Positions 1 through 23,099 of a stretch of 64,000 bases of DNA are shown here, in pieces. The stretch is from positions 95,484 to 159,483 of the IMG/VR virus record IMGVR_UViG_3300005573_000054; one strand, written 5' to 3'. This stretch comes from a virus. The notes below the pieces were generated by a model. The model was given only the letters and a program-made list of their open reading frames with translations. It was not told the DNA's origin and did no database searches. The stretch's first letter is position 1. Every line of letters begins with the position of its first letter. The position numbers and the translations under genes are program-made.

Positions 1-853
1 ATGGGTGGGAAATTCGAGTAATCAAGCTGCTGAAGTGTCTGTGACTGGTCACGCTACTTTATCCAATACTGGAGTACTCACGATATCAGATGGAGCAATT
101 ACAGATTCGAAAGTAGCTAACAACGCAGGTATAGCGTGGACTAAAATATCTAAGAGTGGGTCTAATTTAGCAGATTTACAGACGAGAAGCGCGAGTGATT
201 TAAATAGTGGAAATCTAGATATAGCGCGGATGCCCTTGGGGGGAAACTGGGTATTAACTAGCAGTTTAGGTATAACTGGAGCTAATGTTGGTATCGGGAC
301 AACAACACCTCAGGCAAAGCTGGATGTAAATGGGAAGATACGTGCATCACAAGCTACTCAAGCTGGAGAAGTTGTAACAGCAGATAGAACCATTAACACG
401 GGTATTGGTCTTCAGGGTGGAGGAAATCTTACAGCGGATAGAACAATATCTTTAGCGAACACAGGAGTTGTTGCGGGAACGTATGGAGATGCAACACATG
501 TGGGACAATTTACCGTGGACGCACAAGGAAGAATAACTAGTGCAACTGACGTCCAGATAACTGGTGCGTCACCTGTGGGGTCAGCTTTAGGTAGTGGACA
601 TATATGGGTGGGAAATTCGAGTAATCAAGCTGCTGAAGTAGCTGTGACTGGTGACGCTACTTTATCCAATACCGGAATACTCACGATATCAAGCGGGGTA
701 ATTACAGATTCGAAAGTAGCTAGTAACGCAGGTATAGCGTGGACTAAAATATCTAAGAGCGGGTCTAACTTAGCAGATTTACAGACGAGAAGCGCGAGTG
801 ATTTAAGTAGTGGAAATCTGGATATAGCGCGGATGCCCTTGGGGGGAAACTGG
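1..853 (+). repeat. Internal direct repeat in fibre gene (1-250 vs 604-853)
   Basis: Near-identical 250-bp segments 603 bp apart, both encoding WVGNSSNQAAEV...RMPLGGNW. Confidence 0.9.
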
Positions 854-3220
854 ACGATAAGTAGTGATTTAAGTGTACTTGGAAGTGTACTTGTGGTGAA
901 AACAACGGGTAACGTCGGTGTCGGGACAACTAGTCCAGAGGCACTGTTACATGTTCAAGGAAATCTCAAAGTTACAGGACAAACGAACTTTGGAAATGTG
1001 TTTTACACGTGGCCATCGAGCGCGGGAGGTTCGAACCAGGTTTTGTCGACTAACGGAAGTGGAGGTCTAAGTTGGAAGTCAATAAACGACCTTCTTCTTT
1101 ACCCTGTTTCTCAAACCCCGGCACCGAATAGTATTGTTGTTTCAGAGTCTACTGGGAAAATTAATGCAGGATGGATACCAACTGGACCTCTTGGGTGGAT
1201 AGATAGAAAGGAGTATACGCTTTCATCAGGCAATTCAGGATATAGAAGACTTTTTACTTTTGACGGTTCTTCTATGGCTAATTCTACAGAAAAGTCAATA
1301 CGGTTCTGTATTGAGTGGAGTGGTCAGTCACCTGAAAGACGGGGAATGGCTATAGTTAAGGGGTCCGTCTATAAGCAGTATGATGGTACATTTGACCTCC
1401 TTGTTGATGTAGAATGGGAGTGGCATAAAGAAGATGACAATCATTTGGGTGTTTATGATGTTGTCCTATGGAAACCTACAAATTCTTCTGAAATAAAACT
1501 TTCATCATGGGTCTATGCTTACGGTGGTTTAACTGTTACATTGTCATTATTGGAAGCTCCATCGGATATAGTATTACCGAGTAGTTTAGTTGGTGATAAT
1601 GTTAGTAGTTATGATCTTGTTGATAGTAGGTGGCTCTTTACGGATAACATAAATACAGCTTATGCAATGCATCTTGCTAATCCTATTCCTGAGACAGGAA
1701 TACAGCGGTTTTTTGCAACAGCATCACAAACGCCTAGTGGTAGAAGTATAGTCGTTTCAAGATCTGATGGAACGATTGATCCAGGGTGGTTACCAGGTGG
1801 AGGTGGTAGTCTTCCACCAGGAAGCGCTAATCAGACTTTGAGACACGATGGCACTACATGGGTGGCAAGTAGTTTACTTGTAAACACAGGAGCGAACATC
1901 GGTATTGGGACATCGAGCCCATCACAAAAACTTGAAGTTGTCGGTAATATCAAAGTGAGCTCCTCTGATTTAGGAGTAATACTTAATGCTGATAATAGAC
2001 CGCTTATTACTCGAGGGTGGGATCCTTTTAATTCTGGAAAGTATAGTGGAATAGGTAGATGGGGACTGTTTATGGAAGAAACGAAACTCACTATAGGGAC
2101 ACCAGCTATTCCTGGTAATGGAATTGTTCAGTTTGCAAGGTATAGAGATGATAGCACAATTGATCAGGTTACGATGACGTTTGACCCATCGGGTAACGTT
2201 GGCATCGGGACAACAGTGCCAGAAACAAAGTTACATGTTCAAGGAAATCTCAAAGTTACGGGACAAACGAACTTTGGAGGAGTGTCTTACGCGTGGCCAA
2301 CAACTGGAGGAAGTTCAGGACAGGTTTTAACTACTGATGGAAATGGAAATTTGAGTTGGGCTCCAGTTGGTGGTATGGCGTTTGGATGGGCAACGACATC
2401 AGGATCAATATATGGATTAGGTTATTTAGCTGGTTGTGGAGATATAAATAATGCTCTTAAATTCGGTGGGTACTCTTTCCCATATGCTTATGGTTACACA
2501 GAAAAATGGTCAGGTAGTAGTTGGGCTACAACATCGGTATTGAAACAAGGGAGAGATTACTTGGCTGGTTGTGGAAATGTATATAATGCTCTTAGCTTTG
2601 GTGGGGAGGACGTTAGCGGGAACCCGACTGGTACTACAGAAAAGTGGTTAGGTGACTCTTGGCAAACAACAACGAGTTTACTTTGGCTAAGAGAAGGTCC
2701 GGCGGGTTGTGGAGATGTGAATAATGCTCTTAGCTTCGGTGGGCTTAGCTTCGGTGGGTATGACGATACAAGTTATCTTAGTACCACAGAAAAATGGTCA
2801 GGTAGTAGTTGGGCTACAACAACAGCTTTGAATCAAGCAAGAGGTTACTTAGCTGGTTGTGGAAATGTGAATAGTGCTCTTAGCTTTGGTGGGTATGATG
2901 ATACAAGTTATCTTAGTACTACAGAAAAATGGATGGGTAGTAGTTGGACTGTAACATCAGTTTTGAATCAGTCAAGAGCTTATTTAGCTGGTTGTGGAGA
3001 TATATATAATGCTCTTTGTTTTGGTGGGTGGAACGGTGGTGCTATTAATACCACCGAAAAATGGATAGGTACTAGTTGGGCAACAACACTAGGATTAACT
3101 GTAGGAAGACATGGTTTAGCCGGTTGTGGAAGTATTAGTGGTGCCCTTAGTTTTGGTGGAGTCACAGGTACAGATGCAGATTATGGACTTGCTACAACAG
3201 AAAAATGGTGCAGTGCATAA
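1..3220 (+). CDS. Tail fibre / receptor-binding protein (5'-truncated), GNVGIGT-repeat shaft with a C-terminal 6-blade Kelch-like beta-propeller
   Basis: Frame is open from the window edge; the GTG at 5 corresponds to the internal 'HIWVGNSSN' of the repeat copy at 604. Multiple G(N)VGIGT fibre repeats. Six C-terminal ~44-aa GCGxxxxALxFGG...TTEKW repeats. Confidence 0.8.
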   Translation, partial: WVGNSSNQAAEVSVTGHATLSNTGVLTISDGAITDSKVANNAGIAWTKISKSGSNLADLQTRSASDLNSGNLDIARMPLGGNWVLTSSLGITGANVGIGTTTPQAKLDVNGKIRASQATQAGEVVTADRTINTGIGLQGGGNLTADRTISLANTGVVAGTYGDATHVGQFTVDAQGRITSATDVQITGASPVGSALGSGHIWVGNSSNQAAEVAVTGDATLSNTGILTISSGVITDSKVASNAGIAWTKISKSGSNLADLQTRSASDLSSGNLDIARMPLGGNWTISSDLSVLGSVLVVKTTGNVGVGTTSPEALLHVQGNLKVTGQTNFGNVFYTWPSSAGGSNQVLSTNGSGGLSWKSINDLLLYPVSQTPAPNSIVVSESTGKINAGWIPTGPLGWIDRKEYTLSSGNSGYRRLFTFDGSSMANSTEKSIRFCIEWSGQSPERRGMAIVKGSVYKQYDGTFDLLVDVEWEWHKEDDNHLGVYDVVLWKPTNSSEIKLSSWVYAYGGLTVTLSLLEAPSDIVLPSSLVGDNVSSYDLVDSRWLFTDNINTAYAMHLANPIPETGIQRFFATASQTPSGRSIVVSRSDGTIDPGWLPGGGGSLPPGSANQTLRHDGTTWVASSLLVNTGANIGIGTSSPSQKLEVVGNIKVSSSDLGVILNADNRPLITRGWDPFNSGKYSGIGRWGLFMEETKLTIGTPAIPGNGIVQFARYRDDSTIDQVTMTFDPSGNVGIGTTVPETKLHVQGNLKVTGQTNFGGVSYAWPTTGGSSGQVLTTDGNGNLSWAPVGGMAFGWATTSGSIYGLGYLAGCGDINNALKFGGYSFPYAYGYTEKWSGSSWATTSVLKQGRDYLAGCGNVYNALSFGGEDVSGNPTGTTEKWLGDSWQTTTSLLWLREGPAGCGDVNNALSFGGLSFGGYDDTSYLSTTEKWSGSSWATTTALNQARGYLAGCGNVNSALSFGGYDDTSYLSTTEKWMGSSWTVTSVLNQSRAYLAGCGDIYNALCFGGWNGGAINTTEKWIGTSWATTLGLTVGRHGLAGCGSISGALSFGGVTGTDADYGLATTEKWCSA
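2383..3210 (+). repeat. Kelch-like blade array A (6 units of ~132 bp)
   Basis: Recurrent gctggttgtgga...gctcttag(t/c)tt(t/c)ggtgg and acagaaaaatgg...ggtagtagttgg frameworks. Confidence 0.9.
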
Positions 3221-3245
3221 AACATTTAAACGGAGGTATTAAACT

Positions 3246-3608
3246 ATGGCAGTAGTATATGTTAAATTCTTTTGTCAAGGAAATCCAACGAATCCAAATC
3301 AATGCACGACTCCTTGGGATAAAACAATCAAGTGTTCTATTCCAATAAACGGAATACATGAGGGTATATATTACAACCTTATGGTAATGGAGGGAGATGA
3401 AAACCTTATAAAGCAGTGGGTAAACGAGAATGTTGGTAAAGTTCAAATAATAACTAAAGATGAGGCTAACCAATTAGGACAATTACTTGTTCCTCCTGGA
3501 ACTGAGAGAACTAGAGTCGGAATGCCGGATCGAAAGGAACCTGTAACCTACATAGCAACAGAATTCGATGTTGATCATCCAGAGAATTTATGGGTAGTTA
3601 AACAGTAA
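3246..3608 (+). CDS. Small partner protein of propeller fibre (putative assembly chaperone), paralog of 12487..12849
   Basis: GGAGG RBS. Highly similar to 12487..12849, and both directly follow a propeller gene. Confidence 0.7.
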   Translation: MAVVYVKFFCQGNPTNPNQCTTPWDKTIKCSIPINGIHEGIYYNLMVMEGDENLIKQWVNENVGKVQIITKDEANQLGQLLVPPGTERTRVGMPDRKEPVTYIATEFDVDHPENLWVVKQ

Positions 3609-3659
3609 ACCATATATAAAATCTAAACCAAAAATCTAACATTAGGAGGACATTCGAAA

Positions 3660-5123
3660 ATGGACAATGAAGTAAAAGAACTTAGACCAATTCAAAAAAA
3701 CAAAGCGTTAATCTCTAACATCGATGTATTAAGAAACACAGAATTAGTTAAACCAGAAGACTTTGAATTCTTAAAAGATCACGCTGAAAAATTCCAAAAG
3801 AGATTCAGAACAAGATCTTTTTTCAGGTCTAAAACAGAAATGATTGCCGGTGTTCTAAACGACGCTGAACATCCTACTCCAGACAGTAAGTATTGGCAAG
3901 CAATTGGTGAACAAAATGTTCATCTTACAGAGTTAATTAGTCTTTCTTACGAATACAAAAAACTAGAAGCAAATAACGACCTCTTACTAGCCGAAATCGA
4001 AGAACTCGAGGACAAAATATCAAAAGAAACAAATGAAATTAAAATAAAGAAACTACAAGCCAGATTGAAAAAAAAGAGAGTCGAGTTAGCTCAAGCACAA
4101 TTTATAATGGTGCAACAGGTTAAAGTCGCTCAAGAAAGACTAAGAGAGGTAAAAACCTGGGAAGGTATCATCCAAGAGTTAGAGGGACAACTAGAGTATG
4201 GAGATGAGGATTTCGAACTCCATCATCCAAAGAGGTACTACCTAAGATACAAAAATAAAATGGAAAAGTTACAACTACTTGAACCTTCCGCGAAAGAGAA
4301 CGTCGTAAACCACTTTGAAGCATTTTCAAAACTGATCAACGAAAACCCATCTCTTATGAAACCTAATGTTCCACCGGGTCTACCAGGTAGTGCTAGTGAA
4401 GATGTTAAATCATTGGAGGAAGCATCTAAAAATGATGCCATAGTGAAAAAATACTTTGACCACAAAGTCAGAAAAATACTAGTAGTTGCACCTCATAGAA
4501 ATAAAGAAGATGGAAATGTGACTAATTTTAATTTGATGCAAGTTCCTGCTGCTTTCAGCGCATCTTTATTTGAACCTTATGGATATCTAGTAGCAGATGC
4601 TCAAAACTACGCTGTTAAAAAGGCCCTCGACGAAGGATATAACTATATCTTCTTCGTTGAAGACGATGTCTTAATCCCAAGAAATGCTTTAGTGCAGTTG
4701 ATGAAACATAACGCAGACGTTGTAGGTGGTTTCTACTATAGAAAGTATCTTCCTCTTGAATCAGCTGGAATGCACTATAACGAAAATGGAGAACCTTCGT
4801 CTATAGATGATTTTAAGATAGGAGATGTAATTCACAATACTCTTGTTTTGCCTATGGGATGTACATTGATAAAGACGGATGTGTTTAAAGATATGGAGTA
4901 TCCTTGGTACAAAGAAGTCCAGGTGAGTGGTAAACCAGCTCTTACCTCTGATACTTATATCTGTGAAAAATTTAGACAGAAGAACATTGATGTAATTACT
5001 GATACGGGTGTTCAGTGTTTACATATAGATAAAAAAAGAGGGATAATCTATGGGCATCCTGATATCGTCGATCACATCACTAATACAATACGAGAAGCGT
5101 GGAGAGAATATTTCGCTCGGTAA
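3660..5123 (+). CDS. Coiled-coil phage domain fused to GT2 (GT-A) glycosyltransferase
   Basis: N-terminal heptad-rich region with HPTPDSKYWQ. C-terminal AQNYAVKKAL...YIFFVEDDVLIP (DxD-type), ADVVGGFY, MGCTLIKTDVF, SDTYICEK, DTGVQCLH. Confidence 0.75.
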   Translation: MDNEVKELRPIQKNKALISNIDVLRNTELVKPEDFEFLKDHAEKFQKRFRTRSFFRSKTEMIAGVLNDAEHPTPDSKYWQAIGEQNVHLTELISLSYEYKKLEANNDLLLAEIEELEDKISKETNEIKIKKLQARLKKKRVELAQAQFIMVQQVKVAQERLREVKTWEGIIQELEGQLEYGDEDFELHHPKRYYLRYKNKMEKLQLLEPSAKENVVNHFEAFSKLINENPSLMKPNVPPGLPGSASEDVKSLEEASKNDAIVKKYFDHKVRKILVVAPHRNKEDGNVTNFNLMQVPAAFSASLFEPYGYLVADAQNYAVKKALDEGYNYIFFVEDDVLIPRNALVQLMKHNADVVGGFYYRKYLPLESAGMHYNENGEPSSIDDFKIGDVIHNTLVLPMGCTLIKTDVFKDMEYPWYKEVQVSGKPALTSDTYICEKFRQKNIDVITDTGVQCLHIDKKRGIIYGHPDIVDHITNTIREAWREYFAR

Positions 5124-5136
5124 CATCTGAAGGGGT

Positions 5137-5526
5137 ATGATGATTTTTAAATTTCTTTCTATTCTTAAAACTACAACACTGATTTCTATTGTGGTATGTC
5201 TCTTCTTAAGTGTATTCTATATAAAGCACCTAAGAAAAGAGGTCGACCAGTACAAATCTCTTTATAATACATCACAATACCAACTTGAGACGTGTAAGTC
5301 GACCAATAAAGAGCTTCTTGAGCAGATCTCTGTACAACGTCAAGACTACGAAGTCAAAGTAAACTCACTTCTCAGGAAGATTAAAGACCTGAGTTCAAAA
5401 ACTCCTGTCATTCAAATTCCTAAAGATGTTCCAAAAGAATCAAAAATAACCCAAGAAGAATGTTTGAAAATGGGAGTAATGCTCGATGACTTTGAGAACG
5501 CTATTAAAACGCTTGATTCTCACTAA
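5137..5526 (+). CDS. Putative inner-membrane spanin (Rz-like)
   Basis: N-terminal TM segment followed by coiled coil. Overlaps a lipoprotein gene and lies next to holin and lysin genes. Confidence 0.6.
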   Translation: MMIFKFLSILKTTTLISIVVCLFLSVFYIKHLRKEVDQYKSLYNTSQYQLETCKSTNKELLEQISVQRQDYEVKVNSLLRKIKDLSSKTPVIQIPKDVPKESKITQEECLKMGVMLDDFENAIKTLDSH

Positions 5527-5764
5527 CCTCATCATTATCATTACTCTCATTTTCTTTGGGTGTGCTTCTCCAAAGTTACAACCGGCGGTTATTGAAAAAC
5601 CTGTAATGATGAAATGCCCTATTCCGGATATACCTAAAGCCGATATTAAACCTATTCCACCTAACGCTTCGTACTTAGAGAAGCTTCAAATCATTCTTAA
5701 CAACTATATACAACTTTACCAAGAGAATATTCTTCTTCGAGAATCAATTAAGTTATGCAAATAA
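5486..5764 (+). CDS. Putative outer-membrane spanin (Rz1-like lipoprotein)
   Basis: Basic N-terminus, hydrophobic stretch, lipobox-like IFFG-C, Pro-rich mature part. Overlaps the 3' end of the upstream gene. Confidence 0.65.
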   Translation: MTLRTLLKRLILTNLIIIITLIFFGCASPKLQPAVIEKPVMMKCPIPDIPKADIKPIPPNASYLEKLQIILNNYIQLYQENILLRESIKLCK

Positions 5765-5781
5765 CTTGGAGGTATTATCCA

Positions 5782-6042
5782 ATGAAGCGTTTTCTAAAAA
5801 GATATAGCGTTGATATTTTCTTTTCGGTTTTGTTTGTTTTCTTGACGTATATCATTTCTGTAGTAGGCCAAGAGAATATTGCAGTTGTTTTTAGAAAAGT
5901 AGCGGTGTTCTCCGCGTGGTCAGTAATGTGGTATTTAAGTAGGATTCTAAAGGTTGGGTTTGTTGAGTGGTCTGAAGAGGATAAGAAGAAGTATTCTTAT
6001 GTGTATATGATCTCTTCTGCTTTAATATTTGCTCTTGCCTAG
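5782..6042 (+). CDS. Putative holin
   Basis: Small protein with about three hydrophobic segments, immediately upstream of the lysin. Start moved to the ATG after GGAGG (ORF track gives 5755). Confidence 0.55.
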   Translation: MKRFLKRYSVDIFFSVLFVFLTYIISVVGQENIAVVFRKVAVFSAWSVMWYLSRILKVGFVEWSEEDKKKYSYVYMISSALIFALA

Positions 6043-6060
6043 ACTCGCTTTGATCTAAAG

Positions 6061-6690
6061 ATGCGTAATTTTTTTTCCTGGATAATTTCGATATTCGCCA
6101 CAGTATTGTTTTTGTTTCCTTCATATGCATCATCTAATGACAGATGTAGATCAATTCAATCTCTTATAGAACAAAGCCACAAAGCCATTCTTGGAGAGGA
6201 ATATCCTTGGTGGTATGGTGTTGGCCAAGCTAAAGTAGAATCAAACTGTAAGTGGATTGCTTCCCAAGATGGTTATGGTAGTATCGGATATTTTCAATTA
6301 ACTCCAAAATTTCTTGATCCTATTATCAGACCACTCTATCCTGATTATACGAAATTCAACAGTCCACATCACTTTTACGCGGCTGCTACTTATATAAAGA
6401 TTCTGTGGAATGAATCACCTTCCCCTGTTTTGTGGGTTATTTATCAACAATATAATGGTGGGTATTGGGTGGTTAAGGAGTGTAAACGAGCTAAGTCGTG
6501 GACTTGGGAGTATTGTAAACGAGAGTGTAGGAGATCTGACGTCTGTGTAAAGTTACAGGGAGGAAAGTGTTTTCAGCATAGAAGTTCGTGTGATATTAAC
6601 TATGAGTATAGTTTAAAGGTCTTTGAAAATGGTTCTCTCTATAGACCTGATTATGTAAACGAAGATCAGCTTTTGTATTCATATTGGTAG
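6061..6690 (+). CDS. Lytic transglycosylase (SLT-like) endolysin with signal peptide
   Basis: QAKVES (catalytic Glu), GSIGYFQL and YNGG motifs. N-terminal signal-like segment ending SYA. Cys-rich C-terminus. Confidence 0.75.
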   Translation: MRNFFSWIISIFATVLFLFPSYASSNDRCRSIQSLIEQSHKAILGEEYPWWYGVGQAKVESNCKWIASQDGYGSIGYFQLTPKFLDPIIRPLYPDYTKFNSPHHFYAAATYIKILWNESPSPVLWVIYQQYNGGYWVVKECKRAKSWTWEYCKRECRRSDVCVKLQGGKCFQHRSSCDINYEYSLKVFENGSLYRPDYVNEDQLLYSYW

Positions 6691-6702
6691 AACATATTAG
6701 AG
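6690..6702 (+). promoter_or_regulatory. Candidate phage promoter, GAACAWA motif
   Basis: GAACATATTAGAG, 38 nt before ATG 6728. One of at least nine similarly placed copies. Confidence 0.5.
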
Positions 6703-6727
6703 CGTACATCGTTTAGGGAGGGTTAAA

Positions 6728-7006
6728 ATGGGAGCATTTTATGAGGAAGGCGTAGAAAGTACTATACTCGTTTTACGAGAACGTTCTAGCGTATGGATTG
6801 TTTCCACCGGAAAAAAGGAACCTACTAATTATCCTATCGTAGAACGTATCTACTGGTTTGATACATCTTCTGATGCTATCGTGTTGAAGAGGAAATTTTT
6901 GAGACAAAAAGAATGGGAAGTAGTAACTGAAGAAACCGATCAAGACTACTCTATTGTTCTCAAAAAGGCGAAAGATTCTCTTGATACGTTTCCTTTAAAA
7001 GATTAA
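6728..7006 (+). CDS. Hypothetical protein
   Basis: ORF with GGGAGGG RBS. Confidence 0.6.
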   Translation: MGAFYEEGVESTILVLRERSSVWIVSTGKKEPTNYPIVERIYWFDTSSDAIVLKRKFLRQKEWEVVTEETDQDYSIVLKKAKDSLDTFPLKD

Positions 7007-7024
7007 GAGAAAGCGAGGTCTAAA

Positions 7025-7246
7025 GTGCCAGCTAGAAGCGAGTCTCAAAGACGTCTTTTTGCTATGGCTTTGGCTTATAAAAGAGGGACTCCTCTTAGAA
7101 AAGGCCTTTCAAAAGAGATTCAGAAGACTGTTAGAGAACTTTCTAAGCTTCCTGAAAAGAAACTAGAATTATACTCAAGAAAGACGAAACCTCTACCCCA
7201 AAAGGTAAAAAAGAAGATTATTGAACTTATAGAGATTTTCCTTTAA
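7025..7246 (+). CDS. DUF3008-like small basic protein
   Basis: MPARSESQRRLFAMALAYKRG resembles the MPAKSKAQQ...ALxAKRG family start. Confidence 0.55.
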   Translation: MPARSESQRRLFAMALAYKRGTPLRKGLSKEIQKTVRELSKLPEKKLELYSRKTKPLPQKVKKKIIELIEIFL

Positions 7247-7264
7247 AAAAGAGAGGTTATTAGG

Positions 7265-9796
7265 ATGCCTACAATTAGATTAAAACGAGGAACACGATCT
7301 CAGATCTTATCAGGGAGTTTTCTCGAAGGAGAACCTCTGTTCTCAACTGATACTATGGAATTGATTCTTCAGGGAGTTTCTTCTAAAGTAATCTTAGCAA
7401 GAGCTGATCTAGATAATGTCGAGAACGTGGCAATTCTAAATAAGATAAAAGAAGTTGATGGAACAGGATCGGGACTTGACGCTGATACAGTAGATGGATT
7501 CCATGCTAGTCAAACACCTACAGCAAATCAGATTCCCGTTTTAGATTCAAACGGAATCTTGAACCTATCTTATGGAGCGAATTTAGCGATAAGTTTAGGA
7601 AAAGTTGGGATCGGAATAAGTTCTCCAAGTCAAAAATTATCGGTTTCGGGAAGAATTCAGATAGGTGACGACAATGAGTTGTCTGTTGCTGGTACTGTTC
7701 GCTGGACTGGAACAGACTTTGAAGGATATACTGGGAGTGAGTGGGCGTCTTTTACTACGTCAGGTATTACACCGAGTCCACTAGAAGAAGTTATTAAAGC
7801 TTCTGGAGCCACATTATCTGATTCAGAGGTACGTAATACTATAATTAATAATTATGGTCAAACCAGTCATATAATTTACACACTTCCAGTGGCGGCGGCT
7901 GGAATGAATTTTACTATCATTATAGGGTCAGGTGGAGAAAGTTCAGATTCTTCACTGTCGAATATTGGAAAAGCTCTTAGAATTGAACCAGATTCATCTA
8001 ATTCTATTTACTTTAATAATGTCGATGCTGGACGTGGTACTAACGTTGGAGCACCTTTGGCTATTAAAGGTTCACAGATAAAGTTTACTTCCTTTAAGAC
8101 GGGTTCTTCTAACTGGAATTGGTTGGCAGTGACGAAAGGTCTAGGATGGGATGTATGTGTGAATGTGTGGTCTATAACGTCGAGTTTAAACCAAGCAAAG
8201 AACCAATTAGCTGGTTGTGGAGATATGAATGTTGCTCTTAGTTTTGGTGGAAACACAGGTAGTACTGTTAATACTACAGAAAAATGGTCGGGTAGTAGTT
8301 GGGTTACAACATCAGCTTTGAATCAGGCAAGAGGTTACTTGGCTGGTTGTGGAAACGTAAATAATGCTCTTAGTTTTGGCGGGTGGAACGGTGCAAGTTA
8401 TCTTAGTACCACAGAAAAATGGTCAGGTAGTAGTTGGGCTACAACAACAGCTTTGAATCAAGCGAGAAGCAATCTAGCTGGTTGCGGAAATGTGAATAAT
8501 GCTCTTAGTTTTGGTGGGTGGAACGGTATTGCTGTTAATACCACCGAAAAATGGTCAGGTAGTAGTTGGACTATAACGTCGTCATTAAATCGAGCAAGAA
8601 CTGAGCTTACCGGTTGTGGAGATATAAACAACGCTCTTAGTTTTGGTGGGTGGAACGGTACAAGTTATTTTAATACCACAGAAAGATGGTCGAGTACTAG
8701 TTGGGCCACGACATCGGTTTTGAATCAAGCAAAGTCTGGTCTAGCTGGTTGTGGAAATGTAGATAATGCTCTTAGTTTTGGTGGATATACAGGTAGTACT
8801 GTTAATACCACAGAAAAATGGTCAGGTAGTAGTTGGGTTATAACATCAGTATTGAATCAAGCAAGAACTGAATTTACCGGTTGTGGAGATGTAAACACTG
8901 CTCTTAGTTTTGGCGGGTTGGGTAATACAAGTTATCTTAATATTACAGAAAAGTGGTCACCTTTCACTCCTAATTTCGTTACTGCTTGGAGAACAGCTAG
9001 TAGAATGAATCAAGCGAGAAGCAGTCTAGCTGGTTGTGGAGATGTGAATAATGCTCTTAGTTTTGGTGGGTGGAACGGTATTGCTGTTAATACCACCGAA
9101 AAATGGTCAGGTAGTAGTTGGATCACAACAACAGTTTTAAACATTACAAGAGTTGCCTTGACTGGTTGTGGAAATGTGAATAATGCTCTTAGCTTTGGTG
9201 GAGAAACAGGTGTAGGTAGTCGTGTTAATACTACAGAAAAATGGTCGGGTAGTAGTTGGGCTACAACATCAGTATTGAGCCAAGTAAAAAGCCAATTAGC
9301 TGGTTGTGGAGATATGAATACTGCTCTTTGTATTGGTGGGACCCCAGCTGGTGGTGCCGTTACTGGAACTACAGAAAAATGGTCGGGTAGTAGTTGGGCT
9401 ACAACATCATCGTTGAATCAAGCGAGATGTGCTCTAGCTGGTTGTGGAAATGTGAATAGTGCTCTTAGTTTTGCTGGGTGGGACGGTACAAATTATTTTG
9501 AGACTACAGAAAGATGGTCGGGTAGTAGTTGGGCTACAACATCAACTTTGAATCAGGTAAAACGTGATCTTGCCGGTTGTGGAAATGTGAATAATGCTCT
9601 CTGTTTTGGTGGGTGGAACAATACAAGTTATTTTAATACCACAGAGAGATGGTCGGGTAGTAGTTGGGCTACAACATCATCGTTGAATCAAGCGAGATGT
9701 GGTCTAGCTGGTTGTGGAAATGTAAATAATGCCCTTGGTTTTGGTGGAAGCACAGGTAACTACGTCGGTACTACAGAAAAATGGTCAGGAGTATGA
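7265..9796 (+). CDS. Receptor-binding protein with N-terminal KRGT (Mtd-N-like) anchor and two tandem 6-blade Kelch-like propellers
   Basis: IRLKRGT...GEP...TDT start, LDADTVDGFHAS motif, and 12 blade repeats split 6+6 by the linker SPFTPNFVTAWR. Confidence 0.8.
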   Translation: MPTIRLKRGTRSQILSGSFLEGEPLFSTDTMELILQGVSSKVILARADLDNVENVAILNKIKEVDGTGSGLDADTVDGFHASQTPTANQIPVLDSNGILNLSYGANLAISLGKVGIGISSPSQKLSVSGRIQIGDDNELSVAGTVRWTGTDFEGYTGSEWASFTTSGITPSPLEEVIKASGATLSDSEVRNTIINNYGQTSHIIYTLPVAAAGMNFTIIIGSGGESSDSSLSNIGKALRIEPDSSNSIYFNNVDAGRGTNVGAPLAIKGSQIKFTSFKTGSSNWNWLAVTKGLGWDVCVNVWSITSSLNQAKNQLAGCGDMNVALSFGGNTGSTVNTTEKWSGSSWVTTSALNQARGYLAGCGNVNNALSFGGWNGASYLSTTEKWSGSSWATTTALNQARSNLAGCGNVNNALSFGGWNGIAVNTTEKWSGSSWTITSSLNRARTELTGCGDINNALSFGGWNGTSYFNTTERWSSTSWATTSVLNQAKSGLAGCGNVDNALSFGGYTGSTVNTTEKWSGSSWVITSVLNQARTEFTGCGDVNTALSFGGLGNTSYLNITEKWSPFTPNFVTAWRTASRMNQARSSLAGCGDVNNALSFGGWNGIAVNTTEKWSGSSWITTTVLNITRVALTGCGNVNNALSFGGETGVGSRVNTTEKWSGSSWATTSVLSQVKSQLAGCGDMNTALCIGGTPAGGAVTGTTEKWSGSSWATTSSLNQARCALAGCGNVNSALSFAGWDGTNYFETTERWSGSSWATTSTLNQVKRDLAGCGNVNNALCFGGWNNTSYFNTTERWSGSSWATTSSLNQARCGLAGCGNVNNALGFGGSTGNYVGTTEKWSGV

Positions 9797-9821
9797 ATTA
9801 ATTAGACGGAGGTGTTAAGTC

Positions 9822-9860
9822 GTGGCAATAGTGTATGTTAAATTCTCGTTACGGACTTGA
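9822..9860 (+). pseudogene. 12-codon stub of the 120-aa propeller partner gene
   Basis: acggaggtgttaagtc-GTGGCAATAGTGTATGTTAAATTCTC matches the RBS and start of 12487..12849, then diverges and stops (VAIVYVKFSLRT*). Confidence 0.75.
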
Positions 9861-9900
9861 ACTATATGAACGAAGGTCAATTTCCACACTTTTATTAGTA

Positions 9901-9915
9901 GAACATATTAAGATA
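9901..9915 (+). promoter_or_regulatory. Candidate phage promoter, GAACAWA motif
   Basis: GAACATATTAAGATA, 38 nt before ATG 9939. TAGAACATATTA is shared with the 6690 copy. Confidence 0.5.
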
Positions 9916-9938
9916 AATATCGCCCGGAGAGAGTTAAA

Positions 9939-12461
9939 ATGACCACGATTAGATTAAAACGAGGAACACGATCTCAGATCTTATCAGAGAGTTTTCTCGA
10001 AGGAGAACCTTTGTTCTCGACTGATACTATGGAGCTGATTCTTCAAGGAGTTTCTTCTAAAGTAATCTTAGCGAGAGCTGATCTAGATAACGTCGAGAAT
10101 GTGACAATTCTAAATAGATTAAAAGAGGTTGATGGATCAGGATCGGGACTTGATGCTGATATAGTAGATGGATTCCATGCTAGTCAAACACCTACAGCAA
10201 ATCAGATTCCTGTTTTAAATTCAAATGGAATCTTAAATCTATCAAATGGAGCAAATTTAGCAGTAAGTTCAGGGAAAGTTGGAATTGGAATAAGTTCCCC
10301 AAGTCAGAAATTAACAGTGTCAGGAAAAATTCAGATAGGTGATGACAATGAGTCGCCTACCGCCGGCACCATTCGGTGGACTGGAACAGACTTTGAAGGA
10401 TATACTGGGAGTGAGTGGACGTCTTTTACTGCGACAAATTCACAAAAAGAAATCATCAAAGCTTCTGGAGCTACATTATCTACTTCAGAAGTACGTGATA
10501 CTATAATTAATAATTATGGTCAGACCAGCCATATAGTTTATACACTTCCACTAGCTTCTGCTGCAATGAATTTTACTATCGTTATAGGATCCGGTGGAGA
10601 AAGTTCAGATCCTTCGCTGCCGAATGTTGGAAAAGCCCTTAGAATTGAACCGAATTCATCTAATTCTATTTATTTTAATAGTGTCAATGTTGGACGTGGT
10701 ATTAATATTGGAACACCATTAGCTATCAAAGGTTCACAGATAAAGTTTACTTCCTTTAAGACGGATTCTTCAGTCTGGGATTGGTCGGTAGTAACAGAAG
10801 GTCCAGGATGGGATACATGTGTGAGTGTATGGTCTATAACGTCAAATTTAAACCAAGCAAAAGGTCAGTTAACTGGTTGTGGAGATATAAATACTGCTCT
10901 TTGTATTGGTGGGGCCCCAGCTGGTGGTGTTGTTGTTGGGACTACAGAAAGGTGGTCGGGTAGTAGTTGGGTTATAACATCATCGTTGAATCAAGCGAGA
11001 TGTAGTCTAGCTAGTTGTGGAAATGTAAATAGAGCTCTTGGCTTTGGTGGTTGGGATGGTATAAATCTTTTTAACAGCACAGAGAGATGGTCAGGTAGTA
11101 GTTGGGCTACAACATCAGCTTTGAATCAAGCAAGACGTGAACTTGCCGGTTGTGGAGATATAAACGACGCTCTTAGTTTTGGTGGGTGGAACGGTACAAG
11201 TTATCTTAGTACCACAGAAAAATGGTCAGGTAGTAGTTGGGCTACAACAACAGCTTTGAATCAGGCGAGAAGCAATCTAGCTGGTTGCGGAAATGTGAAT
11301 AATGCTCTTAGTTTTGGTGGGTGGAACGGTATTGCTGTTAATACCACCGAAAAATGGTCAGGTAGCAGTTGGGCTGTAACATCGGTATTGAATCAAGCGA
11401 GAAGTTACTTGGCTGGTTGTGGAGATGTAAACACTGCTCTTAGCTTTGGTGGAGGCACAGGTAACTACGTCGGTACTACAGAAAAATGGTCAGGTAGTAG
11501 TTGGGTCGTAACATCGGTATTGAATCAAGGGAGAGATGCTTTAGGTGGTTGTGGGAACGTGAACACCGCTCTTAGCTTTGGTGGAAGCACAGGTAATTAC
11601 GTTAGTGCTACAGAAAAATGGTCACCTTTCACTCCTAATTTTGTTTCCGGTTGGAGAACAGCTAGTGGAATGAATCAAGCAAGAGGTTACTTGGCTGGTT
11701 GTGGAGATGTAAATAATGCTCTTAGCTTTGGTGGAAGCACAGGTAGTACTGTTAATACTACCGAAAAATGGTCGGGTAGTAGTTGGATCACAACAACAGC
11801 TTTAAGCGTTGCAAGAGCTGACATAGCTGGTTGTGGAAATGTGAATAATGCTCTTAGCTTCGGTGGGTATGACGATACAAGTTATCTTAGTACCACAGAA
11901 AAATGGTCAGGTAGTAGTTGGGCTACAACAACAGCTTTGAATCAAGCAAGAGGTTACTTAGCTGGTTGTGGAAATGTGAATAGTGCTCTTAGCTTTGGTG
12001 GGTATGATGATACAAGTTATCTTAGTACTACAGAAAAATGGATGGGTAGTAGTTGGGCTACAACATCATCGTTGAATCAAGCAAGAGGTTACTTAGCTGG
12101 TTGTGGAAATGTGAATAGTGCTCTTAGCTTCGGTGGGTGGTCAGATAGTGGTGCTGTTGGCATCACAGAAAGATGGATGGGTAGTACTTGGGCTACAGCA
12201 TCATTATTAAATCAAGCAAGAAGTGATCTAGGTGGTTGTGGAGATGTAAATAATGCTCTTAGCTTTGGTGGGAGTGATGGTATAGATTTTTATTATAATA
12301 TCACGGAGAAGTGGTCAGGTAGTAGTTGGGCTACAACGTCAGTATTAAATCAAGAAAGAAGTGATCTAGGTGGTTGTGGAGATGTAAATAATGCTCTTAG
12401 CTTTGGTGGAAACGTTGATTTTAATTATCTTGGTGTTACAGAAAAATGGTTTGGAATATAA
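9939..12461 (+). CDS. Paralogous receptor-binding protein, KRGT anchor plus two 6-blade Kelch-like propellers
   Basis: N-terminal ~295 aa closely similar to 7265..9796. Twelve blades in 6+6 arrangement with the same linker but different loops. Confidence 0.8.
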   Translation: MTTIRLKRGTRSQILSESFLEGEPLFSTDTMELILQGVSSKVILARADLDNVENVTILNRLKEVDGSGSGLDADIVDGFHASQTPTANQIPVLNSNGILNLSNGANLAVSSGKVGIGISSPSQKLTVSGKIQIGDDNESPTAGTIRWTGTDFEGYTGSEWTSFTATNSQKEIIKASGATLSTSEVRDTIINNYGQTSHIVYTLPLASAAMNFTIVIGSGGESSDPSLPNVGKALRIEPNSSNSIYFNSVNVGRGINIGTPLAIKGSQIKFTSFKTDSSVWDWSVVTEGPGWDTCVSVWSITSNLNQAKGQLTGCGDINTALCIGGAPAGGVVVGTTERWSGSSWVITSSLNQARCSLASCGNVNRALGFGGWDGINLFNSTERWSGSSWATTSALNQARRELAGCGDINDALSFGGWNGTSYLSTTEKWSGSSWATTTALNQARSNLAGCGNVNNALSFGGWNGIAVNTTEKWSGSSWAVTSVLNQARSYLAGCGDVNTALSFGGGTGNYVGTTEKWSGSSWVVTSVLNQGRDALGGCGNVNTALSFGGSTGNYVSATEKWSPFTPNFVSGWRTASGMNQARGYLAGCGDVNNALSFGGSTGSTVNTTEKWSGSSWITTTALSVARADIAGCGNVNNALSFGGYDDTSYLSTTEKWSGSSWATTTALNQARGYLAGCGNVNSALSFGGYDDTSYLSTTEKWMGSSWATTSSLNQARGYLAGCGNVNSALSFGGWSDSGAVGITERWMGSTWATASLLNQARSDLGGCGDVNNALSFGGSDGIDFYYNITEKWSGSSWATTSVLNQERSDLGGCGDVNNALSFGGNVDFNYLGVTEKWFGI

Positions 12462-12486
12462 ATTAATTAAACGGAGGTGTTAAGTC

Positions 12487-12849
12487 GTGGCAACAGTGTA
12501 TGTTAAATTTTCTTGTCAAGGAAGTCCAACAGATTCAAGTAAATGTACGACTCGTTGGGATGAAACAATTAAATGCTCTATTCCAATTTGTGGAACACAT
12601 GAGGATATGTATTATAACCTCATGGTAATGGAGGGAGATGAAAACCTTATAAAACAGTGGGTAAATGAGAACACTGGTAAAGTTGAGATAATAACCAAAG
12701 ATCAAGCCAACCAATTAGGACAATTACTTGTTCCTCCGGGAACGGAAAGAACTGGCATCACGAGATGGGAGCAAGAAGAGCCTGTAACCTATATAGCAAC
12801 AAAGTTTGATGTCGATCATCCAGAGAACTTATGGGTAATTAAACAGTAG
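12487..12849 (+). CDS. Small partner protein of propeller fibre (putative chaperone)
   Basis: Paralog of 3246..3608. GGAGG RBS, GTG start. Confidence 0.7.
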   Translation: MATVYVKFSCQGSPTDSSKCTTRWDETIKCSIPICGTHEDMYYNLMVMEGDENLIKQWVNENTGKVEIITKDQANQLGQLLVPPGTERTGITRWEQEEPVTYIATKFDVDHPENLWVIKQ

Positions 12850-12883
12850 ATTAAAATCGGTATATTTATAAGGAGGTTGAGAG

Positions 12884-13171
12884 ATGGCTATTCAGTATTC
12901 TTTTTCAAGAGTAGAATTGTTTAGAGACAAAGTTACTAACGACGTAGTTAAATTAGTTATAGGAATGACGGCTCGAGATGAAGAAACAGGTGTATCTTCT
13001 TATATAGATACAGTTCATGTTTTACCTAAACCAGTTGCTTCGTTGACTAATGACGAAATAAGGGAAATATGTCTAGAAGTGGCTCAGAGGAATGAATGGT
13101 ATTCGATATTATATGGTCAAATACAGGCGCTTATTAATCAACCAGTACCAACTGAAGTAACTGATATCTAG
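12884..13171 (+). CDS. Small tail-fibre-associated hypothetical protein
   Basis: AGGAGG RBS; lies in the fibre cluster. Confidence 0.55.
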   Translation: MAIQYSFSRVELFRDKVTNDVVKLVIGMTARDEETGVSSYIDTVHVLPKPVASLTNDEIREICLEVAQRNEWYSILYGQIQALINQPVPTEVTDI

Positions 13172-13184
13172 AGGAGGTTTGTAG

Positions 13185-13439
13185 ATGAACGTAAAAGTAT
13201 CTTTTTCCGAAAAAAAAGACAATGATGGTAAGATTGTAGGGTTTATAGCAGATTTTACTGCAGAAGAAGGAACTTATAATTCGACTTCTTCTTCTGAAGT
13301 AGGCTTCGATAGTCCAGTGGATTCAATAGATGGAAAGGAAGTATTGAAAAAGTTAGATTTAACCTCAATCATTAAATCACTTAAAGACGATCTTGTAAAC
13401 AAAGGTGCAAATATAACTAAGTTAACAATTTCCTTGTAA
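13185..13439 (+). CDS. Hypothetical protein
   Basis: AGGAGG RBS; lies in the fibre cluster. Confidence 0.55.
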   Translation: MNVKVSFSEKKDNDGKIVGFIADFTAEEGTYNSTSSSEVGFDSPVDSIDGKEVLKKLDLTSIIKSLKDDLVNKGANITKLTISL

Positions 13440-13489
13440 ATCTAACTTTTCCTATATTTTGGTAATACAAGAGAGGAACTTGATCGAAG

Positions 13490-16400
13490 ATGTCCACATA
13501 CACACGATTTCCTATTCAAGTAGCGTGGTTTGGAACGGTTGAACCAGGGGATCCACCTGATGGTACAATATGGATCGATACATCAATAACTCCTCCTTTT
13601 GTAAAGGTATGGGATGGTTCGAGGTGGAGAGCTTTTGCTTCACTTTACGAAGCTTCTTTTACAATATCACCTACACCTCCCTTAGATCCTCTAAAGGGAT
13701 TTCTCTGGGTTGATACCTCCGCATCTCCAATTCTCAAAGTTTGGGATGGATCTACTTGGAAAGAAGTCGGAGGATCTGGACAAGGTCAATATCTAAACGC
13801 CGATACACTTGATGGGTTCGACGGAACATATTATTTAAGTAGAAGTAATCATACAGGAACCCAGACTCCTAATACAATAAGCCCTCAAGGCCCTGGAAGT
13901 GGTCTTAACGCAGATTTAGTAGATGGATTCCATGCCAGTCAGACACCTTCGGCAAATCAGATTCCTGTTTTAAATTCAAATGGGATCTTAAATTTATCAA
14001 ATGGAGCAAATTTAGCAACAAGTTCAGGGAAAGTCGGGATTGGGTTAACAAATCCACAGTATGAGTTAGATGTCCTCGGAGATCTACGAGTTTCAGGACA
14101 GACAAACTTCGGAGGAGTGTCTTACACGTGGCCACCGAGTGTGGGAGCTTTGAACCAGGTTTTGTCAACTAACGGAAGTGGAGGTCTAAGTTGGAAGTCA
14201 ATAAACGACCTTCTTCCTTATCCTCTTTCTCAAACCCCGGCACCGAATAGTATTGTTGTTTCAGAGTCTAGTGGGAAAATTAATGCAGGATGGATACCAA
14301 CTAGACCCTATGGGTGGATAGATAGAAAGGAGTATACGTTCTCATCATCAGATACAGGATGTAGAAGACTTTTTACTTTTGACGGTTCTTCTATAGGTGA
14401 TGAAACAGAAAAGTCAATACGGTTCTGTATTGAGTGGAGCGGTCAGTCACCTGAAAGACGGGGAATGGCTATAGTTAAGGGGTCCGTCTATAAGTGGTAT
14501 GATGGTACATTTGACCTCTTTCTTGATGTAGAATGGGAGTGGCATAAAGAAGCTTCCGATGATTTGGGTGTTTTTGGTGTTTTTCTATGGAAACCTGTAG
14601 GTCTTTCTGAAATAAGACTTTCATCATGGATCTATGCTTACAACGGTTTAACTGTTACATTGTCATTATTGGAAGCTCCACCGGATATAATGTTACCGAG
14701 TAGTTTAGTCTACGAAAATGATGATGTTAATAATTTTGAACTTCTTGATGATAGGGGTTTTCTTACGTTTAGTATAAATACAGCTTTTGCAATGCATCTT
14801 TATGATCCTATTCCTGAGACAGGAATACAGCAGTTTTTCGCAACAGCATCACAAACACCTAGTGGTAGAAGTATAGTCGTTTCAAGATCTGATGGAACAA
14901 TTGATCCAGGGTGGTTACCAAGTGGTAGCGGTAATCTTCCACCAGGAAGCACTAATCAGACTTTGAGACATAACGGTACTACGTGGGAAGCGAGTAGTTT
15001 ACTTGTAAATACAGGAACGAACATCGGTATTGGAACGACAAATCCAGGAAGTGAGTTAGACGTAGCAGGTACTGTTCAACTCAGAGGGTCTATAGTAGGG
15101 ATAGGGTTATATGTCGATCCCTTCGGTGATGTCGGCATCGGGACAACGACACCAAAGGGAAAATTACAAGTGGTAGGAAATGCGTATATAGATGATAGGC
15201 TATTCGTTAGAAGTGGAAGCGGATGGCCAGGTTCACCAGCCATTTCTCTGGCTATAGGAGATTATGATACAGGATTCAATTGGATTTCAGATGGCAATTT
15301 AGCAATTTACACTAACAACGCTGAAAGAATAAGAATTGATTCTTCTGGCAACGTCGGTATTGGGACGACGGTACCAGGAGCGAAGTTACATGTAAATGGA
15401 AATCTCAAAGTTGAGGGACAAACGAACTTCGGAGGAGTGTCTTACACGTGGCCAACAAGCGCTGGAACTCCGGGACAGGTTTTGACTATTGGTGCAAATG
15501 GAAGTCTAAGTTGGTCTACAGTTAGTGGTGGTGGTAGTCTCCCGTCAGGAAGCGCTAATCAGACTTTAAGACACGATGGCACTTCATGGGTAGCAAGTAG
15601 TTTACTTGTAAACACAGGAACGAACATCGGTATTGGAACGACGACACCAGGAGCGAAGTTACATGTAGCGTCTACAGGTGAAGCTTTAAGAATTATGCCT
15701 AACACAATGGTTACTGGGGAATACACATCTATTTCCTTTAGAGACCCTGACGGAGGAACAGGGCCTATGGAAATTCGTTATACAGATGATGGTTCTCCAG
15801 ATCTAGCAATTTTAGGTGGTAACTTTGGTATTGGAACGACAAGTCCAACTGGAAAATTGCATGTTTCGGGAGGTAATGCAATATTTGATGGCAACGTTGG
15901 CATTGGAACGACGGCACCTGGGGCGAAACTTGAAATTTCAGGTGGAGCATTAGCAATAAATGCAAATTACTTCTATTTAGGAGCACCGGGTGACACTGCA
16001 CACTATATTAAATATGCGGGAACCAAAAACGGTATAACTGATTCTGACATCTTTAGTTTTAACAATGCATTACAGTTTGCTTATTTAGACTCTTCACCTC
16101 GCATGGTAATTTTAGGACCAAGCGGCAACATCGGTATTGGAACGACGGTACCAGGAGCGAAGTTACATGTAGTTGCAGCGGGTGGATTCGGTAACGAGCC
16201 TATTCGGGTACAAGCTAATAATACGTTCTTTAGTGGTATAGACGCTGGAGGTACACAGCGCTTTGCTATTAATAATGATCCAGGTCCAGTATTAAGTTTT
16301 AACGGTTACGATACTAATTGGTTTAACTTTATGACTGTGAGTAATACTGGTAGTAGAACAGTTTCATTTAATGCTGGTAATGTCGGTATTGGGACGACGG

Positions 16401-17605: not shown

Positions 17606-17644
17606 CAATATTCTGGTTAAAATAAAGGAGGAAAGAAATTACAA

Positions 17645-18583
17645 ATGGCTACTTTTTCAAGATTTCCCGTTCAGGTAGCATGGTCAGGATCTACGGAACC
17701 CGGAGATCCTCCCGATGGATTTGTCTGGATAGACACATCAGTAACACCCCCTATAGTAAAAATATGGGATGGTTCTAGATGGAGGATAATAGGAGGGTAT
17801 GACGAATCTCTAATCAAACATCCTTTACTGGTTAGCGATGTAGCTCCAGAACCACCTCCTAGAGGATATCTCTGGTGTGATACCTCTTTTCAGAATCCTG
17901 TAGTTAAAGTATGGAATGGTACAAATTGGATTCCTATAAGTGGTAGTGGTGGTTCTCAGGGTTGTAATCTTTCTTATGTTAACCTCAATGAGGTCGATCC
18001 TGACGATCCTATTACTCTTAACCTATGTGAAACTGGTATCTTGTATTTTACGGAGAATAACATTTCTGCACGTATTCCAGTTATTATGGAACAAGGTAGT
18101 GTATTTGAGATGATAGTATCGACTATGAAACCATGGACTTGGGATACGACTTCAACATTTATACTCAGGCCTGAAATGTCTCTACAAAGTTCTCCTTCAG
18201 TGCCAATTCATCTTTACTATAAAGTTCTTAAACTGGATAATACTGTAGTAACAGAAATGGGAGCAATAAGTGACGACGTGACGCCGGGATTCGTATTAGG
18301 AAAAGGAGTTATTTTTGGAAAATATGTTTTTGGTAATGTTCGAAAGAGAAAATTTCTCCATGGTACATCTCAAGCATATTATTCCTCTCAGGCTCCAATA
18401 ACATTCTTTGTATCATCAGAATGGGTAGATTATAATGAAGAATATACGTGGGAAGGAATAGGAGAGATTCTTGCTAAAGCTGATTATCAATCCGACACAT
18501 TGTATAATTTATATAATGGATTTCTTATAATACGAAAAATCGCTTCTAACGTTACTTATCCGTGGGTCTTTTCAGAATATTAA
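17645..18583 (+). CDS. Short fibre/spike protein with shared RFPxQxAW N-terminal anchor
   Basis: N-terminus paralogous to 13490 and 19799 (P..P..G..W.DTS....KIWDG..W repeats). Confidence 0.65.
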   Translation: MATFSRFPVQVAWSGSTEPGDPPDGFVWIDTSVTPPIVKIWDGSRWRIIGGYDESLIKHPLLVSDVAPEPPPRGYLWCDTSFQNPVVKVWNGTNWIPISGSGGSQGCNLSYVNLNEVDPDDPITLNLCETGILYFTENNISARIPVIMEQGSVFEMIVSTMKPWTWDTTSTFILRPEMSLQSSPSVPIHLYYKVLKLDNTVVTEMGAISDDVTPGFVLGKGVIFGKYVFGNVRKRKFLHGTSQAYYSSQAPITFFVSSEWVDYNEEYTWEGIGEILAKADYQSDTLYNLYNGFLIIRKIASNVTYPWVFSEY

Positions 18584-18596
18584 AAGGAGATTTCCG

Positions 18597-19778: not shown

Positions 19779-19798
19779 TCAAAATAAGGAGTTAAAAG

Positions 19799-20221: not shown

Positions 20222-20252
20222 AAAAGTATTTTTAGAAGGAGGATGATGAGTT

Positions 20253-21275: not shown

Positions 21276-21290
21276 TCTTTAACGTTAAAA

Positions 21291-21325
21291 CAACCTGCTA
21301 TCTTTATTTGTAAGGTAGCAGGTTG
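21291..21325. terminator. Intergenic stem-loop
   Basis: caacctgctatct-N9-aggtagcaggttg, a 13-bp stem with one G-U pair. Flanked by A-runs, with no U-tract on the + strand. Confidence 0.5.
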
Positions 21326-21409
21326 AAAAATCTCCAATCACTCTATCAAAAAATTACATAACCATGTTACGCAAAAACATAAATTCACTTTTAATAAGGA
21401 GTTTTCAAA

Positions 21410-21841: not shown

Positions 21842-21872
21842 AAAAATAAAACCATATGGAAGGACTCAAATC

Positions 21873-22241: not shown

Positions 22242-22318
22242 AAGTTCCTTTGGTAAAAAAGAACAAAAAAGATATGATCATATGACAAAATCAATTAAAA
22301 CAGAGGAGGAGTTTTAAC

Positions 22319-22639: not shown

Positions 22640-22654
22640 ATAGAATATTATTAG

Positions 22655-23087: not shown

Positions 23088-23099
23088 TGAGGTGATATT

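Follow-up and report, generated by a model that had tools for sequence, protein, structure and literature searches.

How can two copies of one protein domain within a single viral genome come to differ at many amino acids and remain almost free of silent differences? This question is raised by two tail-fibre genes, here called gene 1 and gene 2, in a window of 64,000 nucleotides that represents bases 95,484–159,483 of the 159,483-bp IMG/VR viral record IMGVR_UViG_3300005573_000054, a record judged to be ~50% complete. The two genes share a module, copy A in gene 1 and copy B in gene 2, the central part of which is referred to as the variable core (coordinates in Table 1). Codon alignment of the core identifies 46 amino-acid-changing codons among 175, three purely silent ones, and a single 6-nt indel. 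The explanation favoured here, to which a probability of about 0.55 is assigned, is that the tract bearing the module was recently homogenised between the two genes and that ~46 codons subsequently underwent rapid adaptive divergence.

Pattern of differences in the variable core

An initial annotation, made from the letters of the window, had counted about 44 replacement codons, two silent codons and one two-codon indel over a slightly narrower span (1220–1708 versus 14339–14833). Codon alignment gives exactly these figures, the silent codons being AGT/AGC at 1319 and GTT/GTC at 1589. The count of two silent codons is correct but understates the amount of silent change, as 11 third-base differences are located inside replacement codons. 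The changes had also been described as clustered and as mostly keeping the third base, and both descriptions hold. Variable codons form 27 runs where 34 are expected (p = 0.004), the third base is unchanged in 35 of the 46 replacement codons, and adjacent double changes fall 13 times on positions 1 and 2 versus 4 and 5 times in the other two phases. Differences at codon positions 1, 2 and 3 number 32, 25 and 14, so that third positions are under-represented (p = 0.03). Changes that respect the codon phase in this way fit selection on the protein rather than a hotspot defined by DNA context; no neighbour-base effect was found outside the codon phase, and an association with T as the next base appeared only within it.

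The 71 variable sites of the core comprise 45 transitions and 26 transversions, and exchanges between copies A and B form a symmetric matrix, with no directional mutation bias. Two or three hits are found in 19 codons, and 129 of the 175 codons carry no replacement. Differences that have no other difference within 6 nt show an ordinary ratio (seven replacement, six silent), and it is thus the clustered differences alone that are anomalous. The common replacements are N>D (five times), Y>F (three times, plus Y>C) and S>N (twice), which is the kind of conservative change that retunes hydrogen bonding or charge. Replacements are far more conservative than unfiltered mutation (mean BLOSUM62 score +0.17 versus −0.84, P < 0.002), and thus, whatever their origin, have passed selection for a working domain.

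The other paralogs of the fibre-gene cluster behave in an ordinary way. In four further pairs the ratio of nonsynonymous to synonymous divergence (dN/dS, or omega) is 0.2–0.5, and silent differences are found in 20–32% of unchanged codons versus 2% in the core. The silent counts of the initial annotation for its internal controls were accurate: 23 purely silent codons were found between the 120-amino-acid (aa) paralogs, as stated there, and 22 in the domain shared by 1898–2212 and 16613–16927. Gene 1 also contains an internal repeat (2–250 and 605–853) that is 93.6% identical, with a dS of 0.15 and an omega of 0.29. It represents a recent duplication with an ordinary substitution pattern and is a useful internal control.

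A tract of low silent divergence

The collinear paralogous region of the two genes extends over 902–1912 and 14021–15037, as determined by DNA alignment and codon-by-codon alignment. Within it, silent divergence changes abruptly. Purely silent codons amount to 8 of 254 inside the homogenised tract (Table 1) versus 17 of 83 in its flanks (~0.03 versus ~0.2 per codon), and to 8 of 205 unchanged codons in the tract versus 185 of 836 in the controls. By the Nei–Gojobori method (NG86), dS is 0.06–0.15 in the tract linkers versus ~0.55 in the adjacent flanks (0.54–0.58); overall, it is ~0.04–0.09 in the tract versus 0.43–0.59 for the remaining paralogy. The tract is thus recent compared with the paralogy around it, and its borders are sharp. 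The recently shared DNA is longer than the domain of ~165 aa that had been delimited earlier.

A separate exchange is indicated elsewhere in the cluster. A 204-bp block of gene 1 has no mismatch to its counterpart in the 840-aa fibre gene; upstream of it, identity drops at once to ~0.25, and downstream it is 0.83 and then 0.77 in the first two bins and reaches ~0.3–0.4 within ~100 nt. Many more exact blocks of 40–101 bp join the Kelch-like repeat regions of three fibre genes. Independently of the module tract, the 204-bp block points to a very recent gene conversion or cassette exchange, and these alignments demonstrate that conversion is active among the fibre genes of this cluster. The signature of gene conversion is complete: a tract with far lower silent divergence than its flanks, together with separate conversion tracts in the same family.

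On either side of the variable core lies one unit of a direct repeat, a 17-aa motif with the pattern S-I-V-V-S-x-S-x-G-x-I-x-x-G-W-[IL]-P, which in copy B is found at 14249–14299 and 14870–14920. Similar motifs occur up to 15 times in unrelated fibre proteins. The bracketing motif may be a module junction used for exchange.

A mechanism can be proposed on this basis. Homologous exchange or gene conversion among the fibre genes would have made a module-bearing tract of ~760 bp identical fairly recently and would have reset its silent sites. The background of the tract would then have evolved normally since the exchange, and selection for two different binding specificities would have driven ~46 codons apart, with a concentration in predicted loops and a dense patch near the C-terminal end. 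The residues under such selection would be hit repeatedly, which could explain the many double changes at positions 1 and 2. Strong diversifying selection combined with gene conversion had been suggested in the initial annotation, and this is the best-supported reading in view of the tract of low silent divergence, the 204-bp block and the two-class codon model described below; an omega above 1 across the whole domain was not borne out.

Table 1. Positions of the two tail-fibre genes, the shared module and related segments in the window
Feature	Positions	Strand	Details
Tail-fibre gene 1	2..3220	+	From the open reading frame list; 5' end cut by the window; full product 1415 aa (P0005); module copy A at residues 688–941 of the full protein
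Tail-fibre gene 2	13490..17605	+	1371 aa (P0004); C-terminal Peptidase_S74 intramolecular chaperone; module copy B at residues 222–477
Homogenised tract, copy A	1034..1795	+	254 codons: 5' linker, beta-sandwich core, 3' linker
Homogenised tract, copy B	14153..14920	+	256 codons
Variable core, copy A	1184..1708	+	175 codons
Variable core, copy B	14303..14833	+	Includes the two-codon insertion TACGAA (Tyr-Glu) at 14711–14716
Upstream linker motif	1130..1180	+	SIVVSESTGKINAGWIP (translation)
Downstream variant of linker motif	1745..1795	+	SIVVSRSDGTIDPGWLP (translation)
Older paralogous 5' flank	902..1033	+	Paired with 14021–14152; dS 0.58, omega 0.57
Older paralogous 3' flank	1796..1912	+	Paired with 14921–15037; dS 0.54, omega 0.16
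204-bp block in gene 1	2744..2947	+	100% identical to 11853–12056 in the 840-aa fibre gene

Tests of selection and rival explanations

Neutral evolution at a uniform mutation rate does not account for the core. In 400 neutral simulations calibrated on the silent differences, which serve as the silent-site clock, a mean of 12 replacement codons (maximum 26) and of 0.5 multi-hit codons was obtained, versus 46 and 19 observed. A two-class codon mixture also fits better than a nearly neutral mixture (likelihood-ratio test (LRT) 25.7, p = 4e-7), which means that the codons are more heterogeneous than neutrality with one uniform mutation rate would allow, and does not demonstrate selection as such. 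When recent selection is simulated at 60–70 tolerant codons, the outcome agrees with the core in all four summary statistics, among them the 19 multi-hit codons and the 11 third-base changes, with no added assumptions. Under the favoured explanation, it is selection on binding specificity that would have sped up the replacements.

Several results weigh against recent adaptive divergence. The initial annotation had let its claim stand or fall with a dN/dS significantly above 1, and by that measure the strong form of the claim fails. The single-ratio estimates for the core are 1.67 by NG86 (60.5 nonsynonymous and 10.5 synonymous differences; Fisher p = 0.12) and 1.51 by maximum likelihood under the Goldman–Yang model (GY94; LRT p = 0.25), neither of them significantly above 1, because the 11 third-base differences within replacement codons partly count as synonymous. 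The signal is one of heterogeneity among codons, not of a domain-wide excess. The codon models compare two sequences only, and a neutral class that evolves ~30-fold faster (~18% of codons, omega = 1) gives as good a fit as one with omega of ~74 (log-likelihood −930.5 versus −930.6). Two general cautions follow from the locus: counts of purely silent codons overstate dN/dS, and pairwise codon models are unable to tell selection from site-specific hypermutation. The omega implied for the variable class is very high, ~7–30 depending on the choice of silent-site clock. The enrichment of variable residues in loops (23 of 59 loop versus 15 of 88 strand residues, p = 0.004), which speaks for the favoured explanation, is read from predicted secondary structure, in a model with a mean predicted local distance difference test score (pLDDT) of 56. 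Finally, the replacement codons of the core are statistically the same as those of old paralog pairs, as expected if they were old rather than newly selected: the fraction of codons changed is 0.26 versus 0.27, the multi-hit share 41% versus 47%, the ratio of transitions to transversions at positions 1 and 2 35:22 versus 233:131, and the mean BLOSUM62 score 0.17 versus 0.07. The sole anomaly relative to the old pairs is the missing silent differences.

This last comparison suggests an alternative, which is possible though rather unlikely, in which the differences are as old as the remaining paralogy: fine-scale conversion would erase the neutral ones, and selection or intramolecular co-adaptation would reject tracts that overwrite the ~46 codons. 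Besides the likeness to the old pairs, it is favoured by the third-base differences in replacement codons, which are not significantly rarer than in those pairs (24% versus 38% pooled, 37–42% individually; p = 0.07), and by the short exact blocks, according to which conversion tracts of 40–200 bp are common in the cluster. The codons next to the replacements argue otherwise. Of 43 unchanged codons that adjoin a replacement codon, only 2 carry a silent difference, although ~22% would be expected to, and of 16 sandwiched codons only 1 does, so that under ancient divergence conversion would have to end within 1–3 nt of ~50 borders. The micro-tract conversion that had been invoked earlier, if taken to come from divergent donors, is not supported by the same adjacent-codon count, and no donor copy was found; the rest of the window matches the variant patches over short lengths no more often than by chance and reveals no templated donors. 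Under ancient divergence, one would moreover expect conversion to have removed, along with the silent differences, the conservative replacements that look neutral (K>R, V>I, D>E, M>I), yet they occur at normal frequency, and simulated recent selection is sufficient for the third-base changes. Recent and ancient divergence agree in that conversion or cassette exchange resets the DNA or keeps it identical and that selection on protein function explains the surviving differences. Most likely, then, selection drives or keeps the ~46 codons apart, and no new mutagenesis machine is involved. Relaxed constraint or chance, with one copy decaying or drifting neutrally after duplication, would agree with single-ratio estimates of 1.5–1.7 that are statistically compatible with 1. 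It has very little probability in view of the 129 codons without replacement beside 19 with two or three hits, the rejection of the nearly neutral mixture, the ceiling of 26 replacement codons in the neutral simulations, the conservative replacements, and the reading frames, which are open in both genes (1371 and 1415 codons). Just as little credence is given to a function at the level of the nucleic acid (an overlapping gene, for instance, or a structured RNA) that would fix silent sites and let only replacements accumulate. It would explain the missing silent changes without recency, but the folding z-scores are −1.5 and −1.1, the copies fold differently, no Rfam match was obtained, each of the five alternative frames carries 9–36 stops, and 71 nucleotide changes are tolerated.

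The remaining explanations place the cause in mutation. An unknown codon-targeted mutagenesis had been considered in the initial annotation; as understood here, it would act independently of reverse transcriptase (RT) and make a particular set of the module's codons mutate faster. It is not needed to explain the data and is improbable, yet the equal fit of the ~30-fold faster neutral class speaks in its favour, as do the tendency of third-base changes to coincide with changes at positions 1 and 2 within one codon (p = 0.0014) and the fact that variable codons are mostly NNY (Y, pyrimidine; odds ratio 3.9). Hypermutation of the whole region is excluded, however, by the scarcity of silent changes, and no DNA-context motif is apparent outside the codon phase. 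The spectrum is ordinary, symmetric between the copies and the same as in the old controls; the replacements have passed a strong filter that favours conservative ones; third positions remain under-represented; and copy B is identical in a second assembly. Besides diversity-generating retroelements (DGRs), no mechanism is known to respect the codon phase. About as improbable is the proposition that the two paralogs are two outputs of a so far undescribed, RT-independent diversification process that rewrites selected codons (mainly positions 1 and 2 of loop NNY codons) of an orphan beta-sandwich receptor-binding domain and leaves the surrounding DNA untouched; if true, retroelement-free targeted mutagenesis would be a new class of diversity generator. 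A classical DGR, in which both copies are variable regions and the template repeat and RT lie in the unassembled half of the genome, would fit the changes at positions 1 and 2 of NNT and NNC codons, which look like the diversification of AAY codons, and the estimated completeness of the contig. It is nonetheless rejected, and its probability is very small, because adenine-specific mutagenesis is clearly absent: 127 core adenines are invariant in both copies (81 at codon positions 1 and 2), and only 40 of the 71 variable sites carry A in either copy, the other 31 having none, whereas ~92% would be expected to carry it if template adenines were the source of the variation in both copies and mutated slowly enough to leave the invariant ones in place. 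Transitions dominate, and 18 of the 46 variable codons do not conform to NNY with a shared third base. The variable stretch covers ~500 bp in the middle of proteins of 1415 and 1371 aa, unlike the short 3'-terminal region of a DGR target, and no C-type lectin chain is found among the fold matches listed for the model, though its mean pLDDT of 56 limits the weight of this point. The further search that had been proposed for an A-rich third copy and an RT gives, within the ~50% complete record, no reason to reclassify the locus as a DGR. With PF00078 (RVT_1), no RT candidate was detected in the whole 159,483-bp record, in which the controls were detected. When both copies were compared by blastn and tblastn with the window and with the entire record, no third copy appeared at the DNA or protein level. 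The NNT pattern that had been called DGR-like is accounted for by amino-acid composition (N, D, S, G, Y, F): the T:C ratio at the third base is equal in variable and invariant codons and the effect of pyrimidine versus purine is not significant inside four-fold boxes. What weight remains falls to assembly problems or to causes not thought of.

A genome-wide freezing of silent sites was also considered and rejected, as 27-aa ankyrin-like repeats upstream in the record are saturated at framework third positions. At least 44 units of this repeat (GW[TS]VAHEQA..GW.TED.EIL.L...) are spread over several genes at ~41,400–59,600 of the record, upstream of the window. The third-position diversity of their framework codons is 0.5–0.6. 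In contrast to the fibre module, these repeats thus diverged long ago and under purifying selection.

The module, its genomic setting and related systems

The core of the module is an orphan at the level of sequence. An exhaustive phmmer search of 1.84 billion representative proteins matched the core only to its own two copies; the other matches are confined to the linker region (best stretches within residues 1–78 of P0001), which is a common fibre motif. Word-indexed searches at near and fragment lengths returned only the window's own proteins and the second assembly (99.9% identical). Scans of IMG/VR with peptide patterns and a 50-nt scaffold pattern detected no further module, and a scan of JGI metagenomes detected no relative. 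Look-alikes proposed by a protein language model scored below 0.9 and were uninformative. In the AlphaFold model, the core (P0001 residues 56–200) has a pLDDT of 70–83, and about nine strands make up its beta-sandwich. The list of structural matches is headed by the C-terminal beta-sandwich domains of phage tailspikes and fibres; carbohydrate-binding modules come next (VIA Z 6.8–8.6, borderline). The nearest structural clusters in the Atlas are tail-fibre clusters, the closest of which carries PF03406 (Phage_fiber_2). The predicted fold suggests an orphan beta-sandwich resembling the C-terminal domains of tailspikes, probably a glycan- or receptor-binding knob that would bind a surface structure of the host.

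The two genes were identified as tail-fibre genes by matches to PHROG tail-fibre families, with E-values down to 3e-44, and by their neighbourhood of structural genes. Gene 1 matches phrog_9942 and phrog_18345. The chaperone domain of gene 2 was assigned by Pfam (PF13884, E = 3.7e-15) beside its own PHROG tail-fibre matches, and baseplate genes of the T4_baseplate and GPW_gp25 families are situated downstream. The window as a whole contains the tail-fibre cluster, baseplate genes, a gene for a tape-measure-like protein and genes for subunits of a multisubunit RNA polymerase, a gene content that points to a jumbo-type bacteriophage as the source. Two large genes at 45850–53231 match the phage multisubunit RNA polymerase beta and beta-prime families, which fits a jumbo phage with its own RNA polymerase. 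A glycosyltransferase gene (Glycos_transf_1/Glyco_transf_4 in the precomputed annotation) is found at 18597–19778, two genes downstream of gene 2. Two fibre paralogs, of 843 and 840 aa, show weak N-terminal matches (7265–7370 and 9939–10040) to the Pfam family Mtd_N (E = 1e-4 and 7e-4, under the gathering score), the N-terminal domain of the protein that the DGR of phage BPP-1 targets; these sub-threshold matches in neighbouring genes count on the side of a DGR.

A second, independent 56-kb assembly of the phage (ENA ERZ27247228, k141_684251) corresponds to 11916–27605 of the window. It differs at 3 of 15,690 bases (99.98% identity over 15.7 kb), too few to inform on variation in the population, and copy B of the module is 100% identical in it. 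Two amino-acid differences were found in gene 2, in a GIGTT junction motif, and the end of this contig lies inside the repeated fibre region.

If selection has shaped the module as proposed, its near-identical DNA scaffolds with ~46 differing codons mark candidate specificity-determining residues in an uncharacterised receptor-binding domain of a jumbo phage. Cassette exchange and selection could jointly equip one virion with two related but distinct adhesins. For laboratory work on phage host range and fibre engineering, the pair provides a ready map of tolerant and fixed positions.

Seen as a pair of gene-converted paralogs under divergent selection in a phage receptor-binding protein, the case is striking but not categorically new. 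The closest parallel is with the "islands of divergence" of concerted evolution, in which conversion keeps or resets the DNA identity of duplicates, differences survive or build up only where function changes, and replacements dominate, as they do here. The present module differs from these in its grain, which is that of single codons over ~500 bp (46 replacement versus 3 silent codons), and in being a phage receptor-binding module with two copies only and no outgroup. A further parallel is the arms-race evolution of phage receptor-binding proteins, for instance of lambda J in coevolution experiments and of the hypervariable segments in gp38/gp37 of T4-like phages. There, too, replacements are generally concentrated in host-recognition loops, and fibre genes are mosaics that exchange cassettes. 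In the present case, by contrast, the divergent forms are paralogs in one genome, the module lies inside the fibre and not at the tip, and no sequence relative was found in the representative proteins and collections searched. DGRs, exemplified by Mtd of Bordetella phage BPP-1 and its relatives, share with the module a phage tail-fibre target and variation mainly at positions 1 and 2 of NNY codons on otherwise identical DNA. The module is set apart from them by its lack of adenine specificity, by the lack of a template repeat or RT in the 159 kb, by its internal stretch of ~500 bp, and by replacements that are conservative and not library-like; its fold may differ as well, as no C-type lectin is among the listed hits. 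The cassette systems of antigenic variation, pilE/pilS in Neisseria and vlsE in Borrelia, likewise combine a conserved framework with variable mini-segments and gene conversion. They differ from the fibre pair in drawing on an archive of silent donors, none of which is present in the 159 kb; here there are just two copies, both of them in full-length and apparently expressed genes.

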